The translations under genes and the position numbers were made by a program. The notes under the pieces are model-generated. The model was not told the DNA's origin and made no database searches. It saw nothing but the letters and a program-made list of their open reading frames with translations. 32,000 nt of DNA, from assembly GCA_036557825.1 (NCBI GenBank), contig DATBGU010000075.1, forward strand, positions 34,867 to 66,866, in the 5' to 3' direction. Source of the stretch: Gemmataceae bacterium. Lineage in GTDB: Bacteria; Planctomycetota; Planctomycetia; Gemmatales; Gemmataceae. Of this stretch, positions 2,865 through 17,102 are shown in pieces (the stretch's first letter is position 1; each line of letters begins with the position of its first letter).

Positions 2865-3140
2865 ATGCCTGTTCTTTCCGATCGCATCCACCAACCCAAT
2901 CCCATTCCCGCCGACCTGACGCCGTTTCGTCAGATGGTCGATCGTCGTCTGTGCATCGCTCAGAAAGGGCTGGACGAGGCACGGCAGCACCTGGCGGCCG
3001 GCCAGGCTCAAGACGTCGATCTGGTCCTGGAGAAAATCGACGAGGATTTGCACCTGCTGCGCCGCCGTCTGAGCAGCGAGACGGAGCGGCGACCGACCGT
3101 GCTGTACGGTCGCCCCGACGCGATCAGCGAAGCCAATTGA
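2865..3140 (+). CDS. Small hypothetical protein (91 aa, predicted helical)
   Basis: ATG-initiated ORF with G/C- or T-ending codons typical of the flanking genes. The overlapping alternatives (2762..3250 +, 2781..3053 -) are Arg-rich shadow frames. The stop lies 4 nt before a 26-bp-arm perfect hairpin. I recognised no family. Confidence 0.5.
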   Translation: MPVLSDRIHQPNPIPADLTPFRQMVDRRLCIAQKGLDEARQHLAAGQAQDVDLVLEKIDEDLHLLRRRLSSETERRPTVLYGRPDAISEAN

Positions 3141-3144
3141 TGTG

Positions 3145-3205
3145 TACCAGCCCGAAGCGCCAGCGAGGGCTAAGGGACCGCCCTCGCTGGCGCTTCGGGC
3201 TGGTA
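3145..3205. repeat. Perfect GC-rich palindrome (family 1, copy A). Candidate bidirectional terminator or REP-like element between convergent genes.
   Basis: Arms 3145-3170 (TACCAGCCCGAAGCGCCAGCGAGGGC) and 3180-3205 are exact reverse complements, with a 9-nt loop TAAGGGACC. It lies 4 nt after the stop at 3140 and 4 nt before the minus-strand stop at 3210. There is no flanking T/U tract. Confidence 0.85.
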
Positions 3206-3209
3206 TCGA

Positions 3210-4388
3210 TTAACGGCGCGACCCCGCTTGCAAATCCAGCAAATTCATGATGATGGACTGCTCCAACTCGCTGGGCTTGAACCCGAACGGCCCGCGACCA
3301 CCCTTGTACACCACGCTTCCATCGCGGCTGACGAGGTAGAGACGATCGGGCATGCCGCTGTAGAGATGACCGACGCGATCGTTCACGCCGTCCACGACCA
3401 GCGGAATCGTCATCTTCAGCGTTTGACAGCAGCGCGCGGCCACGGTCGTTCGCTCGGTGTCGGTCTTCGGCTGGACGATCTCGATGCCGTCGCGGTCGTT
3501 GGAGTCCATGCGCCAGCCGTCAATGGGATGCGCCTCGCGGACGTAGACGCCGAGGAACTGCACGCGGTCGCCGTAGCGGCGCTTCAATTCTTCCAAGGCC
3601 CCAAACTGGGACCGATACGGCCCTCAGGTGAAGCTGCCGAAGATTAGCACCACCGGCTTCTTGCCGCGGAAGCGCGACAGGGTGATGGCCTTGGTATCGT
3701 CGAACGTCCGCAGCGTGAAATCGGGAGCGAGCCGGCCGACCGACGGTCCCTCGTGGAACGAGCCGATTTCGCCCTCGAACAGTCCCTTGAGCAGAATTTG
3801 CGGCGACGGCATGCCTCCTCCCGGATTCTTCGACGGCGGAGGCGGCGGGGGAAACAGCAGGGCGTGCAGTTCCTCGCGCGACAGCGAATCCTTGCCCTTG
3901 GCCGCTTTCTTGAACATCTCCTGCCACTCGGCGGCGGTGATCTTCTCATCGTGATCGGCGTCGCTGCGGCGGAAGAACGGGTTGACGATCCGCATTTGCC
4001 GGTTGAGCGGCGCGTCGTCGGACCAGTCGAAATCGGCGCGCGTGAGCCGGCCGTCGTGATCGCGGTCGAGGCGGTCGAACAACTCGTCCGGCCCGGTGAA
4101 CTCCTGTTTGCTGATATTGCCGTCGCCGTCCTTGTCCATGCGTTCGGCTAGCCATTTCAGACCGTAGGCGCTCTGGCCGGGATGGAACCAGCCCATGTCG
4201 CCGGAAGAGGGCGGCTGCCCGCTGGCGATGGCGCCGAGCATCTGCGCCGCTTCCACCTGGCGCAGCCAGCTGAGCGTCGGTGGCAGAAACTCGCGCGGTG
4301 CGGCTTTCTTCGGCGGCGCAGCCCGGCTGGCGGAAATCGCAACGGCCAGGAGGAGGCAGGCCCCGAGACATCTTGCAAAAAAGGACAT
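3210..4388 (-). CDS. Secreted EF-hand / iodothyronine-deiodinase-like (thioredoxin-fold) selenoprotein candidate. The in-frame TGA at 3624-3626 is read as selenocysteine (392 aa, U at residue 255).
   Basis: ORFs 3624..4388 and 3210..3596 are in the same frame (4388-3596 = 792 = 3x264), with only TGA plus 9 sense codons between them. The joined sequence reads APDFTLRTF..GKKPVVLIFGSFT-U-GPYRSQFGALEELKRRYG..VYVREAHP...GMPDRLYLVSRDGSVVYKGGRGPFGFKPSELE. This matches the deiodinase-family FGSxT(U/C)xP(F/Y) active site and the C-terminal ERLY...Y.GG.GP.G motif. N-terminal signal peptide MSFFARCLGACLLLAVAISASRA. Three EF-hand loops (DKDGDGNISKQE, DRDHDGRLTRAD, DADHDEKITAAE). AGGAG lies 7 nt upstream of the ATG at 4388. 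The downstream ORF alone would need a TTG start with no RBS. Confidence 0.75.
3597..3613 (-). promoter_or_regulatory. Candidate bacterial SECIS hairpin downstream of the in-frame UGA
   Basis: The mRNA reads UGA-GGGCCGUAUC-GGUCCCA-GUU-UGGGGCC. This gives a 7-bp stem (one G:U pair) with a GUU apical loop, starting 10 nt after the UGA. The loop lies ~17 nt downstream of the UGA. This agrees with the bacterial SECIS geometry I recall (apical loop with G/U, roughly 16-37 nt after the UGA). A competing hairpin, GGGCCG-UAU-CGG(U)CCC, forms immediately after the UGA. Confidence 0.4.
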
Positions 4389-4427
4389 GGTTTATCTCCT
4401 ATTCGTATCATTCTGCGTCGTTTCCCC

Positions 4428-4490
4428 CAACTAGCCCGGAGCGCCAGCTACGGGGTACTTCCGCCCGTCGCTGGCGCTCCGGGCTAGTTG
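4428..4490. repeat. Perfect GC-rich palindrome (family 1, copy B, diverged)
   Basis: Arms 4428-4448 (CAACTAGCCCGGAGCGCCAGC) and 4470-4490 are exact reverse complements. The 21-nt spacer can add ~5 more base pairs. It lies 12 nt downstream of the stop of the 4503..6407 gene and upstream of the selenoprotein gene. Confidence 0.85.
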
Positions 4491-4502
4491 GAGAAGGCAG
4501 CC

Positions 4503-6407
4503 TCATTTCGCCCCTTGCTTGATCGTGTGCTCCTTGTCGATGCCCAGTTTGTCGAGATCGGCTTTCTCCAGGACGGTCTTGCCGCCGTCCTTGCCGGGCC
4601 AGTAAATCGTGAGGCGATCAATCTTCGTGGTCTCACCGAGTCCGAACGTCACGGTCAGTTCGCTCTGGCTGAGATACCCGCGTGCGGCGGCGACCTCGCG
4701 GCGCTGCTCGATGCCGCCCGCTTGCAGGATGACGCGCGCGCCGATGGCGCTGCGGTTGGAGCGCACACCGTCGCCCTCCAGACGTAGACGAATCCAGTGA
4801 TTGCCGAGCTTATTGTCGTTGCGGAGGACATGGGCGGGACCGCCGTTGCCGACCAGAATCACATCGAGATCGCCGTCGCCGTCGAGGTCGGCGTAGGCGC
4901 TGCCGCGACCGACGAGCGGCTGGAACAGATCGGTGCCGGCCGCTTCCGCCGTCACTTCCTCGAAGCCCTGGTCCTTCCTGCTCCAGAAAAGTTGCGGCGG
5001 CTGAGCGTACTTCTGGCCCGCCTGCAACTTGCTGATACCGGGATCGAGATGGCCGTTGTTCGTCAAAAAATCGAGCCGGCCGTCGAGATCGTAGTCGAAG
5101 AAGAACGTCCCGAACTTGAGCAGCACGCGGCTCGGCCCGGCGATGTACTCGCTCCGTGCGACTTCCGAGAACTCCAGTCCTTTCGGATCGTCCTGGCAGA
5201 GGAAGGTGTTCGGTTCATCGGCGAAATTGCCGATCAGTACGGCATTGCAGCCGGGACGATAGCAGGGTCCCCAGTCGATGCCCATCGCCCCACGGACGTT
5301 GCCGTCCACGTAGGCGACGCCGGCGTAGGTGCCCTTCTCCTTGAAGACGCGGCCGCCGTCGGGCGCGGGCTGATTGTGGAACAGGAAATTGCGCACCGTG
5401 TCGTTGGCGACGAGGATGTCCGGCCAGCCGTCCTCGTCGGCGTCGCAGACGATGACACCCAGCGATTTGCCCACCGGCCGTAAGGGCGCATTGGGATCGA
5501 TGCCCTGCGCCTCGATGACCTCTACGCCGGACTCTTTCGACACGTCCTTGAATTTGCCTCCGCCCTCGTTGCGGTAGAGGAAACACACCGCGCCATCGAA
5601 CTGCTTGGGTTGAGCGTAAGTGCGCTCCCTGCCGTCAATCTTGGAGCCGATGGCGAGGTCGTAGGCCGGCGACCAGCGGACGTAATTGCACACGAACAGG
5701 TCGAGCTTGCCGTCGCCGTCGTAGTCGAGGAACGAGGACGACGTGGAAAAGCACAGCGGTTTCTCCGATTTGAAGAAATCGGGAAGCACGATGTTCGGCC
5801 AGCCGCCCGGTCCGCCGACGCCCGCCGTCTCCGTCGCGTCCTTGAACTTGCCGCCCTCGTTGCGGAAGAGGCGGTTGCCGCCGACGCCGGTGACGAACAC
5901 GTCGGTCCAACCGTCGTTGTCGTAGTCGCCGACCGTCGCGCCCATACCGTACATGGTGACGGCCAGGCCCGCCTCCTTGGTCACGTCCTTGAACTTGCCG
6001 CCGCCCTCATTGTGATAGAGGGCCAGGGTCGGCTTCGCCGCCCCGGTCTTCTCCTGACCGGGCCAAGGGCAAGCGTTGACGAACAGAACATCGGGCTTTT
6101 TGTCGTTGTCGAAGTCGAGGATGGCGACGCCGCCGCACATCGTCTCGGGCAGCAGTTTTTTCGGGGTGGCGCCGTTGTCATGCACGAAGCGAAACCCGGC
6201 GTCCTCGGTGATGTCGGTGAAGAGAACGTGCGGCACGGGAACGGTTTTGCGATGGTGTGGATCGCCGGTCTCGCCCACTATCTTTGGAGGCTGAACGACG
6301 CTAAACACGCCAAGATAGTGCAGCGTTGCCAGAGTGGCGCCGCCCAGCAGAAGGACGCCGCCCACGAACCAGGCGATCGAAGAGGCTTTACAAGAACACA
6401 GAGACAT
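4503..6407 (-). CDS. Membrane-anchored FG-GAP/VCBS repeat protein with a C-terminal ASPIC/UnbV domain (CRTAC1 family)
   Basis: Repeated Ca-binding-type loops: DFDNDKKPDVLFVN, DYDNDGWTDVFVTG, DYDGDGKLDLFVCN, DADEDGWPDILVAND, DYDLDGRLDFL, DLDGDGDLDVILVGNGG. ASPIC/UnbV-like tail: GNHWIRLRLEG...SNRSAIGARV...GYLSQSELTVTFGLG. I chose the ATG at 6407 (GGAG 6 nt upstream). The ORF-track GTG at 6434 lies inside palindrome C. Confidence 0.85.
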   Translation of the reverse strand: MSLCSCKASSIAWFVGGVLLLGGATLATLHYLGVFSVVQPPKIVGETGDPHHRKTVPVPHVLFTDITEDAGFRFVHDNGATPKKLLPETMCGGVAILDFDNDKKPDVLFVNACPWPGQEKTGAAKPTLALYHNEGGGKFKDVTKEAGLAVTMYGMGATVGDYDNDGWTDVFVTGVGGNRLFRNEGGKFKDATETAGVGGPGGWPNIVLPDFFKSEKPLCFSTSSSFLDYDGDGKLDLFVCNYVRWSPAYDLAIGSKIDGRERTYAQPKQFDGAVCFLYRNEGGGKFKDVSKESGVEVIEAQGIDPNAPLRPVGKSLGVIVCDADEDGWPDILVANDTVRNFLFHNQPAPDGGRVFKEKGTYAGVAYVDGNVRGAMGIDWGPCYRPGCNAVLIGNFADEPNTFLCQDDPKGLEFSEVARSEYIAGPSRVLLKFGTFFFDYDLDGRLDFLTNNGHLDPGISKLQAGQKYAQPPQLFWSRKDQGFEEVTAEAAGTDLFQPLVGRGSAYADLDGDGDLDVILVGNGGPAHVLRNDNKLGNHWIRLRLEGDGVRSNRSAIGARVILQAGGIEQRREVAAARGYLSQSELTVTFGLGETTKIDRLTIYWPGKDGGKTVLEKADLDKLGIDKEHTIKQGAK

Positions 6408-6432
6408 GGAGGACTCCGAATAAGGTTCATCC

Positions 6433-6483
6433 ACCAGCCCGAAGCGCCAGCGAGGGCGGCCCTCGCTGGCGCTTCGGGCTGGT
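6433..6483. repeat. Perfect GC-rich palindrome (family 1, copy C)
   Basis: Arms 6433-6456 and 6460-6483 are exact reverse complements with a 3-nt loop. They share an identical 25-nt core, ACCAGCCCGAAGCGCCAGCGAGGGC, with copy A. It lies 18 nt downstream of the stop of the 6502..9675 gene. Confidence 0.85.
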
Positions 6484-6501: not shown

Positions 6502-9500
6502 TCAGAAGCCCGGCGCGCCCTCGCGATTGAGCGGATAAATGACGATGGACTCGGCCGCGTGATCGGCGGCTGGGTGTTTTTTGCGATACATCTGCACGGT
6601 CCGGCTCTGCGCCAACTCGTCTGGCTTGAAGATCCGGTGCAGTTCCAGGTGCAGCTTGCCCAGCACGTGCGCCGCCGCCTCCTTCAATTCAGGGTCGGTT
6701 TCCTTGTGGAAAAACGGGGCGATCTGAGTCAGCAACAGCTCGAAGCGGGGCCGCCTCGGTTGCGTCACTGAGACGGGTTCGCTGCCGAGGGCCGTCAGCG
6801 CTTGTGCCAATTGAGCGGCCGCTTCTCGCCGCGCGCCCTTGTCGGTTTGGCCGTTGAGCAGCGTCTGGGCCAACGCTTTCAAGGACTCCTCATCCGTTTT
6901 CGGCGCTCCTTCGGGAACCTCGACCTTCGCCAGCGGCCGGCCGAGCATCTGGAAGCACTGATGCAGCCCGAAATGCGCGCTCAGGTTTTCGGTGTCGATG
7001 CGCAGCGTCCGCTGGTATTGCTCGATCGCTTCCAAGAGGAAAGGATCGCGCGCTTGCGGGTTGCCACGCTCCAGCGAGGCGCGCTCGAAGAGCGCGCGGC
7101 CCAGGGCGTTAATGACGACGTAATCCTTCGTGAAATCGAAACCGCGGTCGCGCGGCTGCCGCTCCGGATCGAGGATGCCCTTGAAAATCGTGATGGCGTC
7201 GTCGTAGCCCCGACGATCGGAGGCGTTCTCCAGCGTGACGAGTCCGTTGAACCACGCCACGGTCCACCACGGCGCGCCGCCCTTGCCGGCCTCTTCCAGC
7301 ACCGTGACCGCCTCGCGCAAGCGTCCCTCCTTCTGGTAGACGCGCGCCAGGTTCAGGTTCGCGTGGCCGGCCGCCTCCTTCGGATAGCGCTTCAGAAGTT
7401 CCTTGAACGCTTCCTCGGCCTGGCGCAGCTCGCCCTTCTTTTCGGTGATGCCACCCTCGATGAGGCAGCCGATGCCGTAATCGTTCCAGCGCTGCCACGC
7501 CGGTTTGATCGGCGAAGTTTGCTCCCGCACTTTCTCGTCGACGCCTTCGACCGGCAGCGTCAGCCGGTCGGCGCACAGATCGACGATCGGCAGTTTCGGC
7601 ACCTTATCGTCGCCGCCGTAAACCAGACTCATGTACTCGAAATCGAACTTACGGTAGCGCACGCGCACTTCCAACTCGACCGGGCCTTTCACGTCTTGCG
7701 GCACCTTCAGCTCGTAGTGGACGACGTGACCGGCGCCCGGTGGAATCTGATGGTTGTACAGCGGCGTGAAGATGTCCTGCGGATTGCGGCGATTGACGCG
7801 ATTGCCGTTGCGGTCCAGCATCAGCACGTTGAGGCGATGCGCCCACTCATCGACTGCCCCGGTTTCGTCGGGACCGGCGAGCGCCCCGGATCGACCGATG
7901 ACCTTGCCGGCCGATTTCGCCGTGAAGTCCACCCATATTTCGTTGGAATCGACCGTGCCCTGCGAGAACAGATGGCCGACGCCGAGAGTGCGAATCACCA
8001 CTTCGACGAGGTAGTTGTTCCCCGGTTTCAGCTTCGGCAGTTCCGGCCGCAGCGGGGCGATGAGCCGGCCATCGATGGTGCCGCCTTCCTTCAGCGCGAA
8101 CAGGTCGATGCGCAGCGAGCGGTCCTTGCCCTCCGGATCGGTGCCGCGCAGGAAGTCGGCGTTTTTCTCGGCCGCCTTTCGGAAGCCGTCGGCGTGCGCG
8201 GCATGTTCCGGCATCTGGCTCAACAGCCACGCCAATCCGGTGTTCGCCGCCGGGAAGAAGTGATCGTGGACCTTGCGCGTACCACTGGTGTCGAAGTCCT
8301 TCGAGCCGAAATCGTTGCTCGCTTGCAGTAGCATGTGGCAACTATTGCAGTTCTCCTTGGCCTTGGGCGGATAGTAGAAACTGCGGGCGTTGTGGCCGGA
8401 AACGCCGCTGAGCAGGAACGATTCGCGGTGGTCTTGACCGCGCAGGAACTCCTTGTAGTGGTTCAACTCGACGGGCAGGCTGACCTTGTGGCACGTCGAG
8501 CAGAAGTCCGCATGGATGTTGTCGGCGTTGCGATGGAACGGTTTGAGGAACGTCTTTTTGTGGAAATCGGGCTTGGCCTTGACGACCTGATTGCTGAACC
8601 AGCTGAGCAGCGGATTGTCACTGTAGGCGAACGGATAGGGCATCGGCTCCTCGATGGTGTAGGCGGCGTTGCCCTCGTTGCTGTTGACGTTGGTGATGGC
8701 GTGGCAGACGACGCAGGTGATGCCGGCCTTGGCGGTCGGATGGTTCTCATCGTCGAACTTGGGATCGTCGAAAGCGCCGGAGAAGAACGGCACCGGATCG
8801 TGACAGCCGGCGCACCAGCGCGAGGCGCGTGGGACGCCGTGCTCATCGACGATCTTGCGCGACTCGCGGACGCTGAAACGATAGGGCGGATTGTTGAACG
8901 AGCTGAAGTGGTGCGCCGAGTGGAAGTGCTGCTTGTAGATGTCGGGATGGCACTGCATGCAGTATTCGTCCTTCATCATGGCGCTGGCCGGGATGAAGTC
9001 GCCGGTGGCGGTGCGCGCCCTGGACGGCTCGTAATATTTCTCGCCCTCGCGCGGGCCGACGGCGAACCACTTGCGCGGATCCTGCATGTGCAGCACGATC
9101 ATGGCGGCGACGAAGACAGCGACGCCAGCACCCCAGCCGTAGGCGTAGTGCCATTTGATGTCCGGGCCGGCCCAGCGGTGCAGCACGTACAGCACCACGG
9201 CGGCGACGGGGGCGAGAATGTGCAGCCCGTACACGATCCAGCGACCGACGCTGCCGACCGGCAACTGCGGCAGGCCGGACAGCTGGATGAGAGCCACGCC
9301 GCTGACTACGACCAGAATGCCGGTGACGAATAGGGTGATGCCGAGCTTGACGGCCAGGCGGTTTTTGCGTTTGCGCGCGGTCAGCAGATGCGTACACCCA
9401 AACACGAGGAACGGCAAAATGATGGCGAGTCCAAACAGGATGTGGGCGACGAACATCTGCAAGGTGAACTGGTTCGTGTAGGTGCGGGTGCTGATCATCT

Positions 9501-9675
9501 CCAGCACGCGGATCGCCAGCAGATAGATGCCGGTGACGCCAAGCGCCGCCGTGCCGGCGAAGACGAGGAAGAGCAGACTTTTCAGGCGTGGGCCGATCGC
9601 CGGTTCGTAGGGCCGGCCGCGCACGTCCACCAGTTTTCGAGGCGGAACAGCCGCTTGGGTCTGTGGAAGGTCCAT
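6502..9675 (-). CDS. Integral-membrane multiheme c-type cytochrome fused to a TPR-like C-terminal region
   Basis: About five N-terminal TM helices. Five CXXCH haem-binding motifs (CMQCH, CAGCH, CVVCH, CSTCH, CNSCH). The C-terminal half is helical-repeat/TPR-like (NLARVYQKEGRLREAVTVLEEA...). ATG at 9675. Clear amino-acid complexity compared with the Arg-rich antisense ORFs. Confidence 0.8.
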   Translation of the reverse strand: MDLPQTQAAVPPRKLVDVRGRPYEPAIGPRLKSLLFLVFAGTAALGVTGIYLLAIRVLEMISTRTYTNQFTLQMFVAHILFGLAIILPFLVFGCTHLLTARKRKNRLAVKLGITLFVTGILVVVSGVALIQLSGLPQLPVGSVGRWIVYGLHILAPVAAVVLYVLHRWAGPDIKWHYAYGWGAGVAVFVAAMIVLHMQDPRKWFAVGPREGEKYYEPSRARTATGDFIPASAMMKDEYCMQCHPDIYKQHFHSAHHFSSFNNPPYRFSVRESRKIVDEHGVPRASRWCAGCHDPVPFFSGAFDDPKFDDENHPTAKAGITCVVCHAITNVNSNEGNAAYTIEEPMPYPFAYSDNPLLSWFSNQVVKAKPDFHKKTFLKPFHRNADNIHADFCSTCHKVSLPVELNHYKEFLRGQDHRESFLLSGVSGHNARSFYYPPKAKENCNSCHMLLQASNDFGSKDFDTSGTRKVHDHFFPAANTGLAWLLSQMPEHAAHADGFRKAAEKNADFLRGTDPEGKDRSLRIDLFALKEGGTIDGRLIAPLRPELPKLKPGNNYLVEVVIRTLGVGHLFSQGTVDSNEIWVDFTAKSAGKVIGRSGALAGPDETGAVDEWAHRLNVLMLDRNGNRVNRRNPQDIFTPLYNHQIPPGAGHVVHYELKVPQDVKGPVELEVRVRYRKFDFEYMSLVYGGDDKVPKLPIVDLCADRLTLPVEGVDEKVREQTSPIKPAWQRWNDYGIGCLIEGGITEKKGELRQAEEAFKELLKRYPKEAAGHANLNLARVYQKEGRLREAVTVLEEAGKGGAPWWTVAWFNGLVTLENASDRRGYDDAITIFKGILDPERQPRDRGFDFTKDYVVINALGRALFERASLERGNPQARDPFLLEAIEQYQRTLRIDTENLSAHFGLHQCFQMLGRPLAKVEVPEGAPKTDEESLKALAQTLLNGQTDKGARREAAAQLAQALTALGSEPVSVTQPRRPRFELLLTQIAPFFHKETDPELKEAAAHVLGKLHLELHRIFKPDELAQSRTVQMYRKKHPAADHAAESIVIYPLNREGAPGF

Positions 9676-11286: not shown

Positions 11287-12429
11287 TTATTTTTCGGCAG
11301 ACTTCTTCGCGGCATAGGTCCGGCCGAGATGACCGACGATGGCCCGCTTGACCGCCAGCGCGTCGATGGCGCCGGTCTTGCGGTAAAGAACCTTGCCCCC
11401 CGGCGCGATCAGCAGCGTGTGAGGCAGCGGACCGGCCCAATCCTTGTCCAGCAGGTCGGCGAACTTGTCGCGGTCCTTGATCTTGAGGAGGTAATTGACG
11501 GCAGAGACGTGCTTATCGCGCAGCACCTTCATCGCTTCGTCTTTTTTCTCCGGCTCGTCCATGCTGAGGGTGACAAGTCGGAAATCGCGGCGACGGTACA
11601 TGCGATTCATGGTAACGAACTCTGGAAGCTCTTCGACGCATGGCCCGCACCACGACGCCCAGACGTTGACCAGCAACAGCTTGTCGCCGTCGTTCTTGAC
11701 CAACCGAGCGACGCCGGCTTCGTCGATCGACTCCAGGGCGACCGGCTCCCGGTCCCATTTCTCCAGGGACTTCTTGGCGTCCTCGCGCTTGTCGGCCCAC
11801 TTGGTCGAGCAGCCGAAGACGCGCGTCCGCTCGACCGGGACCGGTTTGCCCGCCAGCAGGGCGTCGAGGGTATTGCGGGCGTCGTGCGATTTGACCTCCT
11901 TGACGTCGGAGTCGTCGATGCGGCCGACGTAGCGGAGCCGGCGTTCGCGGTCGAAGACGAACACCTGCGGCGTGGCCAGCACCCCGTAGGCCCGCGATGT
12001 CTTTTGGGTGTCGCCGTCGTAGAGGTAGGGGAAGGCGAACTTCCTCTCCTTGGCCCGCAGCTTCATCTCCTTTAGAGAATCGCCAAGGTCGGTATAACCC
12101 AATTCGTCGAGCCGGACGGCCTTGGGGTCGTTGGGGGAGATGGCGACCAGGGCGACGCCCTTCCCTTTGTAGTCGGCGTGCAGCCGGATGATGCGTTCCT
12201 CGTAGGCCTGGGCGGTGGGGCAGTGGTTGCAGGTGAACACGACGACCAGGATGCGCGCGTCGGCGAAGTCCTTCAGGGCGTGCTCGCGGCCATCGATGCC
12301 GGGCAGCTTGAAGTCTGGGGCGGCCCCGCCGATAGGCAACGTCCGCAGATCGGGAGGGTCGGCCAAAGCCGTGCCCGCCCCAGCCAGGAAGGCCGCCACA
12401 CCGACGGCGAGTCGAACGCAACAAATCAT
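11287..12429 (-). CDS. Secreted two-domain thioredoxin-fold thiol:disulfide oxidoreductase (redoxin/AhpC-TSA-like plus TlpA-like)
   Basis: Signal peptide MICCVRLAVGVAAFLAGAGTALA from the ATG at 12429. First domain carries VVVFTCNHCPTAQ (CxxC). Second domain carries LVNVWASWCGPCVEELPEF (WCGPC). The ORF-track start at 12501 adds 24 residues upstream of the signal peptide. Confidence 0.8.
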   Translation of the reverse strand: MICCVRLAVGVAAFLAGAGTALADPPDLRTLPIGGAAPDFKLPGIDGREHALKDFADARILVVVFTCNHCPTAQAYEERIIRLHADYKGKGVALVAISPNDPKAVRLDELGYTDLGDSLKEMKLRAKERKFAFPYLYDGDTQKTSRAYGVLATPQVFVFDRERRLRYVGRIDDSDVKEVKSHDARNTLDALLAGKPVPVERTRVFGCSTKWADKREDAKKSLEKWDREPVALESIDEAGVARLVKNDGDKLLLVNVWASWCGPCVEELPEFVTMNRMYRRRDFRLVTLSMDEPEKKDEAMKVLRDKHVSAVNYLLKIKDRDKFADLLDKDWAGPLPHTLLIAPGGKVLYRKTGAIDALAVKRAIVGHLGRTYAAKKSAEK

Positions 12430-12556
12430 GGGGAGAACTCCGGGGGCGGGTCCAACTCGACTGTCACGGCCCGATTCTACACCGCCGGACAACGGTTGCA
12501 ACGACTTTTCCCCACTCTCTTCCGAATGAAGTCACCGGAAGGCCACAATCCCATCG

Positions 12557-12829: not shown

Positions 12830-15568
12830 TCAGGGCAGCTTGTCCCAGTCGATGATCTCGCCTCCGTTGCGGGTGATCAGCGCGCGGAGCGATTTCTCGC
12901 CTATCGTCTGGGGGATAAAGCGAACCGCCCCATCGACCGTGGCGGCGTGGAAGCCATCCTTGAACAGACCGCCGAGCTTGGGCAACGGTCCCTTCGGGTC
13001 GAAGGTCAGATCCTGCGGCTTCGTCCACGGTACCGATTCAGCGGCCTCCGCGATGAGCAGGGTGTAGGTGGAGCCGTCCCGAACATCCCCCCGTGGGGTG
13101 CCCCGTGGACCATCAAAGACAGCTCCGGGACCGACGAACACCTGGTACCGTGTATTGACAAGATCCGTCGGGTTGACGTTGCCGGGAAGGTTCCCCAAGC
13201 GGGCGGTTTCAAACACTCTGGGGATCAGCGGCAGAAGCTTCTTGTTGTGCTCGCTGTCCCACGGCTCATCCAGCTTGAAACGCTTGTATAAAGCCTCCTG
13301 TTCGAGATACGGCAGCAGGGCGACCCGCCAGCTGAGGAGGGGCGTGCTGTCCTTGCCTCGGATGCTCTGCGGCGGCAGGCGGCCGTGAGTGGCCTCGTAG
13401 TTCAGCATGGCGAGCGCCAGGCTTTTCAAGTTGTTGCGACTGACCGTGCGTTCGGAGGACGAGCGGACCGCGAGGGTGGAACCAAGGACCGAGGAGCTGG
13501 CCTGCGCCACCAACGTCGCCGGAGTTCGCTCAATCTGGAGGGTGGCCCGCACCGTGCCTTCCTGCATTTCGACGTGCGGGTTATCCAGGGCCGCGACGCA
13601 GTCGTTGAGCCAGCGCAACTGTCCAGTGAGCGTGACGTCGCTCTTGGCCAACGTAGCCAGAAACGGCTTCAGTTTGCGGTAAAGGAGGGCGAGAGCGGCC
13701 TTGATCGCCTGCTGGCTCTCGCGAACGGGAACCTGCGGCGGGAACTCAACATTCAGGGCGATCCGTGTTCGCGCATGCGGGCTGACATCCATCGTCAGGG
13801 TGGCGCCGTGTGCGCTCAGCAGCGGCCGAAGCGCAGGCTCTTCCTTGAGGAACTCGTCGCCGATCCACTTCTGGAGAAACTCGGGCGGATACAGCCCGGC
13901 CACGATGAGATGTTTTTCCGCTCCCTGCTTGAGCACGCTCGTCCACGGACCGGGGGCGTCCGACCGACTCGGCCGGCGAAGGACACGCTTCATTTCGGCT
14001 GGCGGAGCGAGCACGAACGTGCGGTCGTTGACGAAAGACACGGCGTTCTTGCCCGGCCGCTGGGTTGCGTCCGCCGTGTGGTAGGTGACATCGCCGTCTG
14101 TCAATCGGCGCGGCTTGGGCGGCAGCAAGGCGGCCAAGATCTTGTCGCGCGGGACGTCTCCAGTTGTCGTGACGATCACCACGGGGTCGGACAGGGTGCC
14201 GTCCTTTTCGGAGCGGAGCAGGAAAAGCACTACCCGCTCGACTTCCGAGGGCGCCACTCCCAACCATTCTTGGAGCGGTTGGAACGCTTGGTCGAGGTCT
14301 CGCGCGGCACGCTCGCGCAGAGGCTGGGCGGCCGGGCTTTTGCGCAGGGCCGCCAGGTCGAGGAATATGAAGCCGAAGGCCTGCGGGGGCACGAGAGCGA
14401 GGTCCGACGGCAACGAAGCAGCTGGAGCAACAACGGACGGTTCGGGCGGTGTCTCGATCTCGGCAGGGGGAGCAACTCGACCGCGATGAATCAGCGCGAA
14501 CGTCAACCCCACGGCTGCCGTCACCGCGGCACCGGCCGCCAACCAAAGAAACTCACGGCGGCGGAGCGATCGGCCGAGGCGCTCGATCGGCCCTGGGCGG
14601 CGGGCGAGAATCGGCTCGCCGTCGAGGAAGCGCCGCAGGTCGGCGGCCAAATCCGCGGCAGTGGCATAACGCCGTCGCGGCTCCTTTGTCAGCGCCTTCA
14701 GACAGACCGTTTCGAGGTCGCGCGGAATACTTCGGTCCAGAGCGCGGGGCGGCTTCGGCTCCGCGAATCGCACTTGATGGAGCAGCATGCGTGCCGTGCC
14801 GCGGTAGGGGAGTTGCCCCGTGAGTAGCTGATAGAGGATGACGCCGAGACTGTAAACGTCGCTGCGGCCGTCCACGAGATGGGACTCACCGCGCGCCTGC
14901 TCGGGGCTCATGTAGGCGGGGGTGCCGAGCACCTGTCCTTCGTGGGTTAAGGTCGCTTCCGCGCCGTCGCGGCGGGCAAGACCGAAGTCCATCAGGTGGG
15001 GTTTGCCGGCCTCGTCGAGCATGACGTTGGACGGCTTGACGTCCCGATGGATCACGCCGCGGTCGTGGGCGTACTGCAAGGCGTCGGCGACGGCGGCGAC
15101 GAGACGGGCGGCTTCCCGCGGACTGGGCCGACTGCCCGAAATGAGGTCGGCCAGCGTCATACCTTGGACGAATTCATTCACCAGGTAAGGCAGGCCGTCC
15201 TGCTGTCCGACTTCGTGGACGGGCACGATGGAGGGATGACGAAGTTGGGCGACACTGCGCGCTTCACGCAGAAAACGCTGCAAATCGTCGCTGCCGGAGA
15301 GGATACCTGCGCGCGGAACTTTGATGGCGACTATGCGATCCAGTTCGGGATCGCGGGCCTTGAACACGGTGCCGAAAGAGCCGGCACCAACCTGATCGAG
15401 CAACTCGAATCGTCCCACCCGGCGTGGGCCGTCCAGCGGCCGCCAAACCACGGTCGCACAGGTGTTCGGCGGAAAACTTGAGCCGCAAGAGGGACAAAGC
15501 ACCTCCGCCGGCAAATTGTCTTCCGCCAGTTCTACAGTTCCCTGACAGGTCGGGCAGATGAGGTGCAT
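12830..15568 (-). CDS. Ser/Thr protein kinase. Architecture: N-terminal zinc ribbon, Hanks kinase domain, TM helix, ~350-aa extracytoplasmic region, C-terminal DUF1559-like domain.
   Basis: ATG at 15568 gives MHLICPTCQG..LCPSCGSSF. Kinase motifs: GAGSFGTVFKA, VAIKV, HRDVKPSNVML, DFGLAR, GTPAYMSPEQ. TM helix FLWLAAGAAVTAAVGLTFALI. C-terminal ~203 aa (12833-13441): SRNNLKSLALAMLNYEATHGRLPP...LLSWRVALLPYLEQEALYKRFKLDEPWDSEHN...VDGAVRFI. The ORF-track extension to 15943 overlaps the next gene and looks non-coding. Confidence 0.85.
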   Translation of the reverse strand: MHLICPTCQGTVELAEDNLPAEVLCPSCGSSFPPNTCATVVWRPLDGPRRVGRFELLDQVGAGSFGTVFKARDPELDRIVAIKVPRAGILSGSDDLQRFLREARSVAQLRHPSIVPVHEVGQQDGLPYLVNEFVQGMTLADLISGSRPSPREAARLVAAVADALQYAHDRGVIHRDVKPSNVMLDEAGKPHLMDFGLARRDGAEATLTHEGQVLGTPAYMSPEQARGESHLVDGRSDVYSLGVILYQLLTGQLPYRGTARMLLHQVRFAEPKPPRALDRSIPRDLETVCLKALTKEPRRRYATAADLAADLRRFLDGEPILARRPGPIERLGRSLRRREFLWLAAGAAVTAAVGLTFALIHRGRVAPPAEIETPPEPSVVAPAASLPSDLALVPPQAFGFIFLDLAALRKSPAAQPLRERAARDLDQAFQPLQEWLGVAPSEVERVVLFLLRSEKDGTLSDPVVIVTTTGDVPRDKILAALLPPKPRRLTDGDVTYHTADATQRPGKNAVSFVNDRTFVLAPPAEMKRVLRRPSRSDAPGPWTSVLKQGAEKHLIVAGLYPPEFLQKWIGDEFLKEEPALRPLLSAHGATLTMDVSPHARTRIALNVEFPPQVPVRESQQAIKAALALLYRKLKPFLATLAKSDVTLTGQLRWLNDCVAALDNPHVEMQEGTVRATLQIERTPATLVAQASSSVLGSTLAVRSSSERTVSRNNLKSLALAMLNYEATHGRLPPQSIRGKDSTPLLSWRVALLPYLEQEALYKRFKLDEPWDSEHNKKLLPLIPRVFETARLGNLPGNVNPTDLVNTRYQVFVGPGAVFDGPRGTPRGDVRDGSTYTLLIAEAAESVPWTKPQDLTFDPKGPLPKLGGLFKDGFHAATVDGAVRFIPQTIGEKSLRALITRNGGEIIDWDKLP

Positions 15569-15803
15569 GGACGATCCCCTCAAGAGGAAGATCGCGGAAT
15601 GCCAGTAGTGTAATACGGATAGGGCGGAATAGCAACGAGGACACGCGGGGAAACCAGGAGGTTTCAAGGTGCTTTCTCGATCTCGATGGCGGCCTTTTGC
15701 TCTTCGGACAGAGAAGCTACGCCGTCCAACGGAGTTGGGGATTATGCATTCCGCAAGAGGATTCGGGGACGCGATGTTGGTTGCGAAGAAGCAGCCGGCC
15801 GAT

Positions 15804-17102
15804 TTAGCGTGCGGAACCGAGTGCCGCCAGGTCGGTTTCGCCCTGGAAAGGGAAGGGAACGGGTCGGCGGCCCGAACTGGATTCTCGGCGGCCCGATACG
15901 CTTTTGAAACCGAAAACAAGACTTGAGACGGCGACCTGGGCAAGACGATGCTGAAAGCTCACCCGAGCCGACGCGGGTTGATAGGACCGAATGGCCTGCT
16001 GATAAACATCGCGCACCCGTGCGATGGAATGGTCCCAGTTCATACCCATGACGGCCGCCCGGGCGGCGCGGCTGATCCGAACGCGGAAATCCTCGTCCGA
16101 CAGGAGCGAGTGAATGGCGTCGATTGCGTCTTGGAGGCTTCGCGCCGCATACAACATGCCGGTATCGCCATGTGAAACGAGGCTAGGGATGCCGCCGGCG
16201 CGAGGGGCGACAACCGGGCAGCCGCAGGCCATCGCCTCCAGGACGACGTTACCCATCGTCTCGGTTTCTGAGGCGTACACGAAAGTGTCCGCGGAGGCGT
16301 AAGCCGCAGCCAACTCCGCGCCCCGAAGATAGCCGATGAAATGGGCGTTCTTGCCGGCGAAGCGACGCTCCAGTTCCGAGCGCTGAGGACCATCGCCAAC
16401 CACCGCGAGCGAGACGCCGGGAAAGTGATCGAGGACATCGGCCAGAAAACCGACGTTCTTCTCGGGCGCTAGGCGCGACACCGTCAGCAGGAGGGGTCGC
16501 TGAGTCGCACCGTTTGTCAGTCGATATCTCATCTCCGTGCTTTGCCGCGCTGGGTTGAATAAATCACCGTCAACCGCGGGAGGCCAAAGTTCGACGCGCC
16601 GGAACCCCCGCTCTGTAAGCTCGTCGCGCATGATGCTCGATACGGTGAGATTGACATCCGCTCGATTGTGGTATTCGCGCATGAACCACCATAACAGATG
16701 GGATAAGGGTTTGAGCAGCTTGTACTGCTTGACGAATTCGCCGTAGAGCGTGTGAAACGAAAACACACTGGGTACGCGCACGTCAGCCCGGCGCAGCGAA
16801 TCATGACAGCGGAACCCGAAAGCGAAGGGGTTGACATAATGCAACACATCGGGAGCGAAATGGTCCAGCACTTTCACCAGCCGTTTATTAGGTAAAGCGA
16901 TACGGTATTCGGGATAAAGGGGAAAGGCGAAGCTGGGAAACTCGACAATGGGTACCGGGCACGCCTTGCTTCCATCCGCCTGAGGACAGATAACCATGAC
17001 GTCGTCGTTGGAGCGAAGCAGCTGATGGATGAGGTTCATCGTCCGATTGACGACTCCGTCCACCTTGGGCAGAAACACCTCGGCGAGAATGGCAATACGC
17101 AT
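15804..17102 (-). CDS. GT4-family (GT-B fold) glycosyltransferase, SqdX / diacylglycerol-glycosyltransferase-like
   Basis: The N-terminus MRIAILAEVFLPKVDGVVNRTMNLI is typical of SqdX/UGDG-like GT4 enzymes. The C-terminal donor domain has LLTVSRLAPEKN...FVYASETETMGNVVLEAMACGCPVVAPRAGG (EX7E-type). ATG at 17102 with GGAGG ~8 nt upstream. Confidence 0.8.
   Translation of the reverse strand: MRIAILAEVFLPKVDGVVNRTMNLIHQLLRSNDDVMVICPQADGSKACPVPIVEFPSFAFPLYPEYRIALPNKRLVKVLDHFAPDVLHYVNPFAFGFRCHDSLRRADVRVPSVFSFHTLYGEFVKQYKLLKPLSHLLWWFMREYHNRADVNLTVSSIMRDELTERGFRRVELWPPAVDGDLFNPARQSTEMRYRLTNGATQRPLLLTVSRLAPEKNVGFLADVLDHFPGVSLAVVGDGPQRSELERRFAGKNAHFIGYLRGAELAAAYASADTFVYASETETMGNVVLEAMACGCPVVAPRAGGIPSLVSHGDTGMLYAARSLQDAIDAIHSLLSDEDFRVRISRAARAAVMGMNWDHSIARVRDVYQQAIRSYQPASARVSFQHRLAQVAVSSLVFGFKSVSGRRESSSGRRPVPFPFQGETDLAALGSAR

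Follow-up and report, generated by a model that had tools for sequence, protein, structure and literature searches.

The 32,000-nucleotide stretch analysed here (the window: positions 34,867 to 66,866 of contig DATBGU010000075.1, from the Gemmataceae bacterium assembly GCA_036557825.1) raises the question of whether a TGA triplet that interrupts an otherwise open frame on its minus strand is a stop codon between two genes or a selenocysteine (Sec) codon within one. The frame runs from position 4388 down to 3210 and comprises 392 codons, with this single TGA (3626..3624) in frame. A first-pass annotation had proposed that the TGA joins two open reading frames (ORFs) into a secreted, deiodinase-like selenoprotein carrying EF-hands. 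Comparison with homologous sequences indicates that the TGA almost certainly encodes selenocysteine and that the two fragments are one gene. There is strong support for the core of this proposal, namely a single gene, site-specific recoding of the UGA codon in conjunction with a conserved hairpin, and Sec at the catalytic position of the iodothyronine deiodinases (Dio). We also consider it highly probable that the gene encodes an exported, EF-hand-bearing selenoprotein of the iodothyronine deiodinase family, and that its UGA is recoded by means of a bacterial selenocysteine insertion sequence (bSECIS) located downstream.

Translation of the frame yields 254 codons upstream of the TGA, ending in ...GKKPVVLIFGSFT / ...RGKKPVVLIFGSFT, and 137 codons downstream that begin with GPYRSQFGALEE (GPYRSQFGA) and are followed by TAA. 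A mechanical list of ORFs splits this frame into 3624..4388 (ATG start, 254 amino acids) and 3210..3596 (TTG start, 128 amino acids). In the frame of the gene, the GC content of third codon positions (GC3) has the same value, 0.83, before and after the TGA, compared with 0.63 and 0.43 for the remaining two frames, which agrees with the original suggestion that one coding frame continues through the TGA. Likewise, there is no ribosome-binding site (RBS) before the TTG of the 128-amino-acid ORF, as had been noted at the outset, and the sequence preceding this codon is plain coding sequence. A six-frame scan of the 32 kb for TGA-interrupted frames with high GC3 returned this site and one artefact within the AcrB gene. 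Because the latter lies antisense to that gene, the selenoprotein-gene frame is the only credible TGA-interrupted frame in the window. The computed mass of the product is approximately 43.6 kDa for the precursor and 41.3 kDa for the mature protein.

Gene callers split the gene in every assembly, as the first-pass annotation had expected of them, and this is seen in JGI, Logan and NCBI records alike. The identical 254-amino-acid product, together with a separately called 128-amino-acid 'T4_deiodinase' ORF, is present in the assemblies of two JGI metagenomes and one SRA run. An NCBI metagenome-assembled genome (MAG) annotated as Gemmataceae also carries the 254-amino-acid product, under the name 'hypothetical protein VH643_06640'. 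The related locus L033 is divided in the same manner into pieces of 250 and 127 amino acids. Since the same split gene is found in independent assemblies from three samples, the TGA is not an assembly or sequencing error. Moreover, TGA is the stop codon of 7 of the 14 other Pfam-supported genes in the window, and many orthologues of the selenoprotein gene also terminate with TGA, which excludes a genome-wide reassignment of this codon.

A homologue scan that included one genome per species identified 28 loci (L001-L028) encoding proteins that are related across the domain. All are from Planctomycetota, where they are distributed among the Gemmataceae, Isosphaeraceae, Pirellulaceae, Planctomycetaceae and unclassified lineages. 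The only match in a 29th, gammaproteobacterial locus is to the EF-hand region. The catalytic motif can be located in 27 of these species-level planctomycete genomes, of which 20 have TGA as the catalytic codon and 7 have TGC or TGT. Thus, Cys and TGA occupy the same alignment column, which is the pattern that had been sought as a sign of a Sec codon. The frame remains open for 130-160 codons past the TGA in the homologues and contains no further stops. In addition, identity to the window protein is 54-79% in the part after the TGA (130-137 amino acids) versus 38-78% in the N-terminal part, and the downstream 137 codons are therefore conserved in frame, another point on which the first-pass annotation had staked its case. 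Among the best 120 protein matches, 40 end exactly at ...FGSFT, i.e. where a gene caller stops, and at least 57 are full-length proteins (340-450 amino acids) with Cys in the motif G[NS]x[TS]-C-GPFR. The residue located three positions before the catalytic one also differs between the two forms, as it is Ser (GSFT-U) in all 21 Sec forms and Asn (GN[FYVI]T-C) in 38 of 42 Cys proteins. The RSQFG peptide that follows Sec is specific to the Sec forms because its codons hold the hairpin described next.

The predicted hairpin is 17 nucleotides long and starts 10 nucleotides after the UGA, so that it spans positions +14 to +30 counted from the U of UGA. It is found in all 21 TGA sequences, and its loop conforms to G[UG][UC], wherein the first base is invariant. 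Standard pairs occupy 99.3% of the 147 pair cells in the 21-sequence alignment, and a control in which the 3' arm was slid by 1-3 nucleotides left 16-65% of the cells paired. Three of the seven base pairs change on both sides in a compensatory manner. For pair 15-29, there are 10 sequences with A-U, 9 with G-C, and one each with C-G and G-U. None of 500 shuffles equals the observed covariation score, a count that is drawn from 21 related sequences and is not a probability. All seven pairs can form in 19 of the 20 TGA loci and six can form in the other (L006); in the seven Cys loci, which lack the hairpin, between zero and five of the seven can form.

Codon usage carries the same imprint, because pairing within the hairpin dictates codon choice in the R-S-Q-F-G-x stretch and thereby forces the use of rare codons. 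The Phe codon in the hairpin is UUU in 16 of 16 cases, and UUU accounts for 23% of the Phe codons in window genes. The Gly codon is GGG or GGA in all 21 sequences and never GGC, which makes up 58% of the Gly codons in window genes. For Arg, 20 of 21 sequences have CGG or CGA, and the lone CGC is offset by a compensating G on the opposite strand of the stem. Conservation is restricted to the 17-nucleotide hairpin, and a longer lower stem is present only in some lineages. The dimensions of the hairpin also fit the 17-nucleotide minimal element located some 11 nucleotides after the UGA of Escherichia coli fdhF. Its size, spacing and the G in its small loop match the features of bacterial SECIS elements given in a 2005 paper (PMC1088965). 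Thus, the prediction that a SECIS element should follow the TGA has led to a conserved and covarying hairpin (3613..3597).

Domain and structure-database searches were conducted with the joined sequence in which U was replaced by C. The Pfam model T4_deiodinase (PF00837) matches residues 209-377 with 98.8 bits (cut-off 27, E = 3.8e-28). This match spans the TGA, and so the deiodinase domain that the first-pass annotation had suspected across the junction is recovered with a score far above the threshold. The matches to AhpC-TSA (31.4 bits, cut-off 26) and Redoxin (30.8 bits, cut-off 26.6) are far weaker. Ser is found at position -3 and Thr at position -1 relative to Sec. The NCBIfam model NF038285 'deiodinase_rel' (deiodinase family protein, a hypothetical equivalog) scores 451.3 bits (cut-off 250) and aligns residues 44-385 with model positions 7-346 of 347. 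Given this coverage, the EF-hand plus deiodinase architecture is already a curated family, and the JGI product name 'Iodothyronine deiodinase/EF hand' also describes it. The novelty that the first-pass annotation implied for this combination is the one point of its reading that does not hold.

The solved structures that are nearest by sequence are mouse Dio3 (4tr3, E = 2e-21) and Dio2 (9h48, E = 7e-17), followed by thioredoxin-family proteins at approximately 1e-5 and a peroxiredoxin (Prx) at E = 3e-3. The C-terminal family signature recognized in the first reading of the sequence does align with mouse Dio3 and Dio2. A structure model of the closest full-length Cys homologue (P0004, about 55% identical) has a mean predicted local distance difference test (pLDDT) value of 84.6 and a predicted template modelling score (pTM) of 0.83. 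This model best matches 4tr3 (template modelling (TM) score 0.79) and 9h48 (TM 0.80), ahead of ResA, TlpA, Bcp and Prx.

Many of the residues to which roles have been assigned in Dio3 (PMC11592359) are kept. These include Ser167, Thr169, Sec170, Pro172, Phe173 (Tyr here), Tyr197, Glu200 and His202, as well as Pro203, Asp205, Trp207, Arg260 and Arg275, and they are mostly invariant across 43 family members. The relay and active-site residues among them correspond in the window protein to Ser252, Thr254, Tyr282, Glu285, His287, Trp292 and Arg365. On the other hand, the position of His219 of Dio3 holds a Pro that does not vary in the family, and conservation does not extend to Cys168, Cys239, Phe258 and Glu259. 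A conserved Cys in the downstream part, Cys319, is a candidate for the resolving thiol.

Table 1. Positions in the window of the selenoprotein gene, its signals and the adjoining palindrome.
Feature	Position	Strand	Basis or remark
Complete selenoprotein gene, 392 codons (Sec = codon 255) + TAA	3210..4388	-	Translation, GC3
UGA codon 255, assigned to selenocysteine; aligns with Sec170 of Dio3	3624..3626	-	Translation, codon column, residue map
bSECIS-like hairpin GGUCCCA-GUU-UGGGGCC, 7 bp, 3-nt loop	3597..3613	-	Inside codons R-S-Q-F-G-A
Catalytic motif, residues 252-255	3624-3635		Residue at -3 = Ser167 of the Dio3 proton relay
Deiodinase-type thioredoxin-fold domain, residues 209-377	3258..3764	-	FGSFT-U-GPYR, YVREAHPIDGW, YKGGRGPFGF
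Cys319 codon	3432..3434	-	Alignment: Cys in all 28 Sec and Cys forms compared
Shine-Dalgarno-like AGGAG, 8 nt 5' of the ATG at 4388	4396..4400	-	Read from sequence
Predicted signal peptide or N-terminal anchor, residues 1-23	4320..4388	-	Hydrophobic core CLGACLLLAVAIS, then SRA|A; by-eye inspection
EF-hand loop 1, DKDGDGNISKQE, residues 85-96	4101..4136	-	Canonical; degenerate in many Cys-form homologues
EF-hand loop 2, DRDHDGRLTRAD, residues 108-119	4032..4067	-	Family-invariant (D108, G113, D119); Asp at position 12
EF-hand loop 3, DADHDEKITAAE, residues 143-154	3927..3962	-	Glu at position 6; family has Gly
Perfect palindrome directly after the stop codon	3143..3207	-	26-bp stem, -61.8 kcal/mol; copy resembling a repetitive extragenic palindrome (REP)

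The N-terminal half of the protein accounts for the remainder of the proposed architecture. Export from the cytoplasm can be inferred from the signal-like N-terminus, whose cleavage site was judged by eye to be MSFFARCLGACLLLAVAISASRA|AP. Full-length homologues all have a hydrophobic N-terminus, and the homologue model contains a helix at residues 2-17 with low pLDDT. Lipoprotein status was considered on account of an 'LGAC' sequence near the N-terminus and was rejected, as only four hydrophobic residues precede that Cys. Pfam recognizes EF-hands in three stretches between residues 79 and 176 (EF-hand_1, 46.8 bits, cut-off 25.4). The three loops that had been read from the sequence on the N-terminal side are thus confirmed both by Pfam and by inspection, and helices flank the EF-hand loops in the homologue model. 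Calcium is presumably bound by these loops.

From these features, the following course of events can be proposed, with strong support for its translational part. A ribosome would meet the UGA at codon 255, where the 17-nucleotide hairpin located 10 nucleotides 3' of this codon would serve as the bacterial SECIS element and recruit SelB with Sec-tRNA(Sec). Selenocysteine would then be inserted, and the remaining 137 codons would be translated. The resulting protein, as predicted from its sequence and the homologue model, would consist of a signal peptide, two EF-hand pairs, a Pro-rich linker and a deiodinase-type thioredoxin fold in which Sec255 takes the place of Sec170 of Dio3. Attack by the selenolate on an electrophilic atom within a small substrate may then give a Se-X intermediate, to be reduced in turn by the invariant Cys319 or by an external periplasmic thiol. 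Calcium on the EF-hands would presumably stabilize or regulate the enzyme outside the cytoplasm.

Unfortunately, several observations weigh against some part of this proposal. The SelA, SelB and SelD domains were not found by Pfam in the large ORFs of the window and of 10-kb extensions on each side, and neither a tRNA-Sec nor a known RNA family was found by ARAGORN and Rfam in the window and the 28 related loci. These searches also took in the flanks of the related loci, and they covered about 48 kb of the contig, which is 89.7 kb long and belongs to a genome of several megabases. As 48 kb is some 0.5% of a genome of such size, the absence of sel genes says little, and complete sets of selA, selB, selC and selD are reported for Gemmata obscuriglobus, which is from the same family as the MAG, and for Isosphaera pallida (PMC4807772, Table S8). 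The hairpin has no match in Rfam, and the 86-nucleotide region after the TGA is not significantly more stable than its shuffles (RNAfold, z = -1.26), so that support is confined to the short conserved hairpin. The shuffle statistics overstate independence because the hairpin sequences share ancestry. The hairpin is better supported by the control with the slid arm and by its comparison between Sec and Cys forms. Furthermore, the structure model depicts the Cys homologue P0004 rather than the window protein, and no conserved gene for a redox partner lies near the selenoprotein gene. Finally, the absence of His219 and of the Dio cysteines makes any assignment of recycling route and substrate a guess.

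The simplest competing explanation holds that the TGA is a real stop, such that the gene makes a 254-amino-acid EF-hand protein and the 128-amino-acid ORF is either dead or separately translated from its TTG. This would agree with the split annotation in every assembly and with the use of TGA as an ordinary stop in this genome. However, it would leave unexplained why 20 genomes, spread over several families of planctomycetes, have TGA in one and the same catalytic column, why the downstream part is better conserved than the upstream part, and why the Cys homologues are single proteins. It would also cut a thioredoxin fold at its active-site residue and call for initiation at a TTG that lacks an RBS, and for these reasons we judge it very unlikely. 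Slightly more room should be left for programmed read-through of the UGA without selenium, either with Trp, Cys or Arg inserted by a near-cognate tRNA or as a means to balance truncated and full-length products, although this too is unlikely. It draws some support from the failure to find Sec machinery in the roughly 48 kb searched, and from the statement in PMC4513850 that UGA recoding is only partly efficient. On that statement, a truncated product is probably made as well even if Sec is inserted. Nevertheless, the column aligns with nothing other than Cys, which is the classic Sec/Cys pairing, the hairpin has the size, spacing and loop G of bacterial SECIS elements (PMC1088965), and relatives in the same family possess the Sec machinery (PMC4807772). 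Least likely of all, to the point of being negligible, are reassignment of TGA throughout the genome (code 4 or 25) and an error of assembly. Nothing beyond the bare in-frame TGA speaks for either, and they conflict with the 7 of 14 window genes and many orthologues that stop at TGA, with the single TGA-split frame in 32 kb, and with the identical sequence in the assemblies of three samples.

A more substantial challenge accepts the Sec gene but assigns it a different chemistry, wherein the product is a periplasmic selenoperoxidase or thiol-disulfide oxidoreductase resembling Prx or TlpA rather than a dehalogenase-type reductase. AhpC-TSA and Redoxin do pass their cut-offs, ResA, TlpA and Bcp are the next-best fold matches, and Cys319 could be a resolving Cys. 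In addition, the Dio fold has been called peroxiredoxin-like (PMC11592359) and a generic redox role was suggested in the 2005 paper (PMC1088965). We nevertheless find this alternative rather unlikely, though by no means negligible, because the family has kept both the insertion specific to Dio and the residue set (Tyr-Glu-His-Trp and Arg275) by which deiodinases differ from Prx and TlpA, and because Dio3 and Dio2 lie far ahead of any Prx in sequence searches (E = 2e-21 versus 3e-3). Returning to the Dio-like selenoenzyme, the reaction that we tentatively favour acts on an aromatic substrate other than a thyronine, which would be reductively dehalogenated or reduced. Peroxide reduction is a less likely possibility, and thiol-disulfide exchange and other reactions taken together are similarly doubtful. 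The preference reflects the retention of the Dio-specific insertion and most of the relay combined with the loss of His219, Phe258, Glu259 and Cys239, which are tied to thyronine binding or enzyme recycling (PMC11592359). As the thyronine-binding residues are not conserved in the alignment, deiodination of iodothyronines is not expected.

The genes upstream of the selenoprotein gene on the minus strand encode an FG-GAP protein with an UnbV_ASPIC domain (643 amino acids, 4503-6434) and a TPR protein (1057 amino acids, 6502-9675). The order TPR, FG-GAP-ASPIC, EF-hand-deiodinase is kept in close Gemmataceae (L001, L030 and L033; 67-76% identity) but does not extend to the family at large. Proteins of the FG-GAP/ASPIC type likewise bind calcium outside the cytoplasm. 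Operon partners were considered as evidence of function and rejected, since TPR and ASPIC genes accompany the selenoprotein gene only in close Gemmataceae, and other loci have DUF1559 pilin-like genes or ORFs without a Pfam family. Approximately 7 kb from the selenoprotein gene there is a gene (11287-12501, minus strand) for a 404-amino-acid protein with tandem AhpC-TSA/Redoxin and Thioredoxin_8 domains. This thiol oxidoreductase of extracytoplasmic type could conceivably act as the reductant, although its proximity is not conserved. A 91-amino-acid ORF (2865-3140, plus strand) that is convergent with the selenoprotein gene is kept in L002 (67% identity) and L003 (51%); it is called as a gene in JGI and Logan assemblies and has no Pfam family on record. 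Further away is a gene for a 1037-amino-acid protein (12830-15943, minus strand) with a Ser/Thr protein kinase domain and a C-terminal DUF1559 domain (SBP_bac_10), a planctomycete pilin-like family that recurs beside several orthologues of the selenoprotein gene.

The TPR, ASPIC-FG-GAP and selenoprotein genes form a co-oriented run, and every intergenic gap along it contains a REP-like palindrome (3143-3207, 4427-4493 and 6437-6479) with arms of about 26 bp and the core GCCCGRAGCGCCAGCGA. There are six matches to the arm, compared with 0.07 expected. The hairpins have predicted energies of -62 and -65 kcal/mol (z = -13 and -10), and no run of T residues follows them. The copy after the selenoprotein gene is possibly an mRNA 3' end or stabilizer. 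The element appears to be lineage-specific, because the ASPIC and selenoprotein genes are separated by only 5 nucleotides in L033.

Deiodinase-like (PF00837) selenoproteins of bacteria, with Cys homologues and bacterial SECIS elements, were described from the Sargasso Sea by Zhang, Fomenko and Gladyshev in 2005 (PMC1088965). A 2008 survey of Global Ocean Sampling (GOS) data counted 22 Sec and 21 Cys deiodinase-like sequences (PMC2398784), and such proteins are listed in reviews from 2022 and 2026 (PMC9312934, PMC13188914). The window protein shares with the proteins from 2005 and GOS the Sec/Cys pair at the T4_deiodinase catalytic position, the SECIS element just past the UGA with a G in its small loop, and the presumed redox role. 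However, theirs are short marine metagenome sequences, whereas the present gene is from a soil/peat-type Gemmataceae MAG and adds a signal peptide and EF-hands. The reviews also give the motif UxxC and the GOS table gives none, whereas the motif here is T-U-G-P-[FY]-R with no Cys at position +3. The reviews may refer to a different subfamily, or else their entry is imprecise. Planctomycetes are not mentioned in the GOS paper or in either of these reviews, and a literature search for a bacterial EF-hand/deiodinase fusion found nothing relevant.

The members of NF038285 have the same conserved N-terminal region, EF-hands and deiodinase domain, and NCBI names the Cys homologues accordingly (P0085). 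The Sec forms, by contrast, escape annotation, with their C-terminal piece called separately in JGI and Logan assemblies. Vertebrate Dio1-3 (4TR3, 9H48) share the motifs FGSxT-U-xP[FY], [VI]Y[VI]xEAHPxDGW, RLY and GG[RK]GP, but they have an N-terminal membrane anchor in place of the signal peptide and EF-hand module, and their SECIS element is in the 3' untranslated region rather than in the reading frame. A conceptual parallel exists in SELENON (SelN), a eukaryotic selenoprotein of the endoplasmic reticulum lumen in which EF-hand and thioredoxin-like domains are combined and whose motif is SCUG. There, too, a redox fold with Sec has an EF-hand as its partner, and the compartment is rich in calcium and lies outside the cytoplasm. 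This parallel is one of analogy and not homology, as the fold family and active-site motif are different and no search made here revealed a sequence relationship.

An exhaustive search with the half of the protein that follows the TGA recovered 2,619 cluster representatives with E values up to 1e-3, of which 956 have E <= 1e-10. The top 150 of these representatives include EF-hand-fused proteins of about 390-460 amino acids, stand-alone proteins of about 200-290 amino acids and larger fusions of 700-900 amino acids, along with at least 34 short fragments that start just after the catalytic column. The fragments are consistent with the existence of further Sec forms that have escaped annotation. 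Given that bacterial selenoproteins of this family have been known since 2005, the present finding corrects an annotation and does not add a new kind of system. Three modest points were not found in the literature that we searched. These are the common occurrence of Sec forms of the EF-hand subfamily in soil/peat-type Planctomycetota, the minimal covarying bSECIS that is common to the Sec forms, and the association of Ser at position -3 with Sec (21 of 21) and of Asn with Cys (38 of 42).

In dozens of planctomycete genomes, this gene is wrongly divided into two 'hypothetical' proteins, and because of this, estimates of the selenoproteome and of selenium use in soil/peat Planctomycetota are too low. 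The family also offers a compact and conserved 17-nucleotide bSECIS with covariation, together with a natural Sec/Cys series. One possibility that we regard as improbable is that the EF-hand module makes the protein a calcium-gated extracytoplasmic selenoenzyme, comparable in its logic to eukaryotic SELENON, and that it dehalogenates natural organohalogens by a true reductive reaction in the periplasm of planctomycetes. If this were true, periplasmic organohalogen dehalogenation would be the ancestral activity from which the thyroid-hormone deiodinases of animals were recruited. The Gemmataceae provide a culturable route to the role of the non-animal deiodinase homologues, a question that was left unanswered in the 2005 paper and in the reviews of 2022 and 2026.

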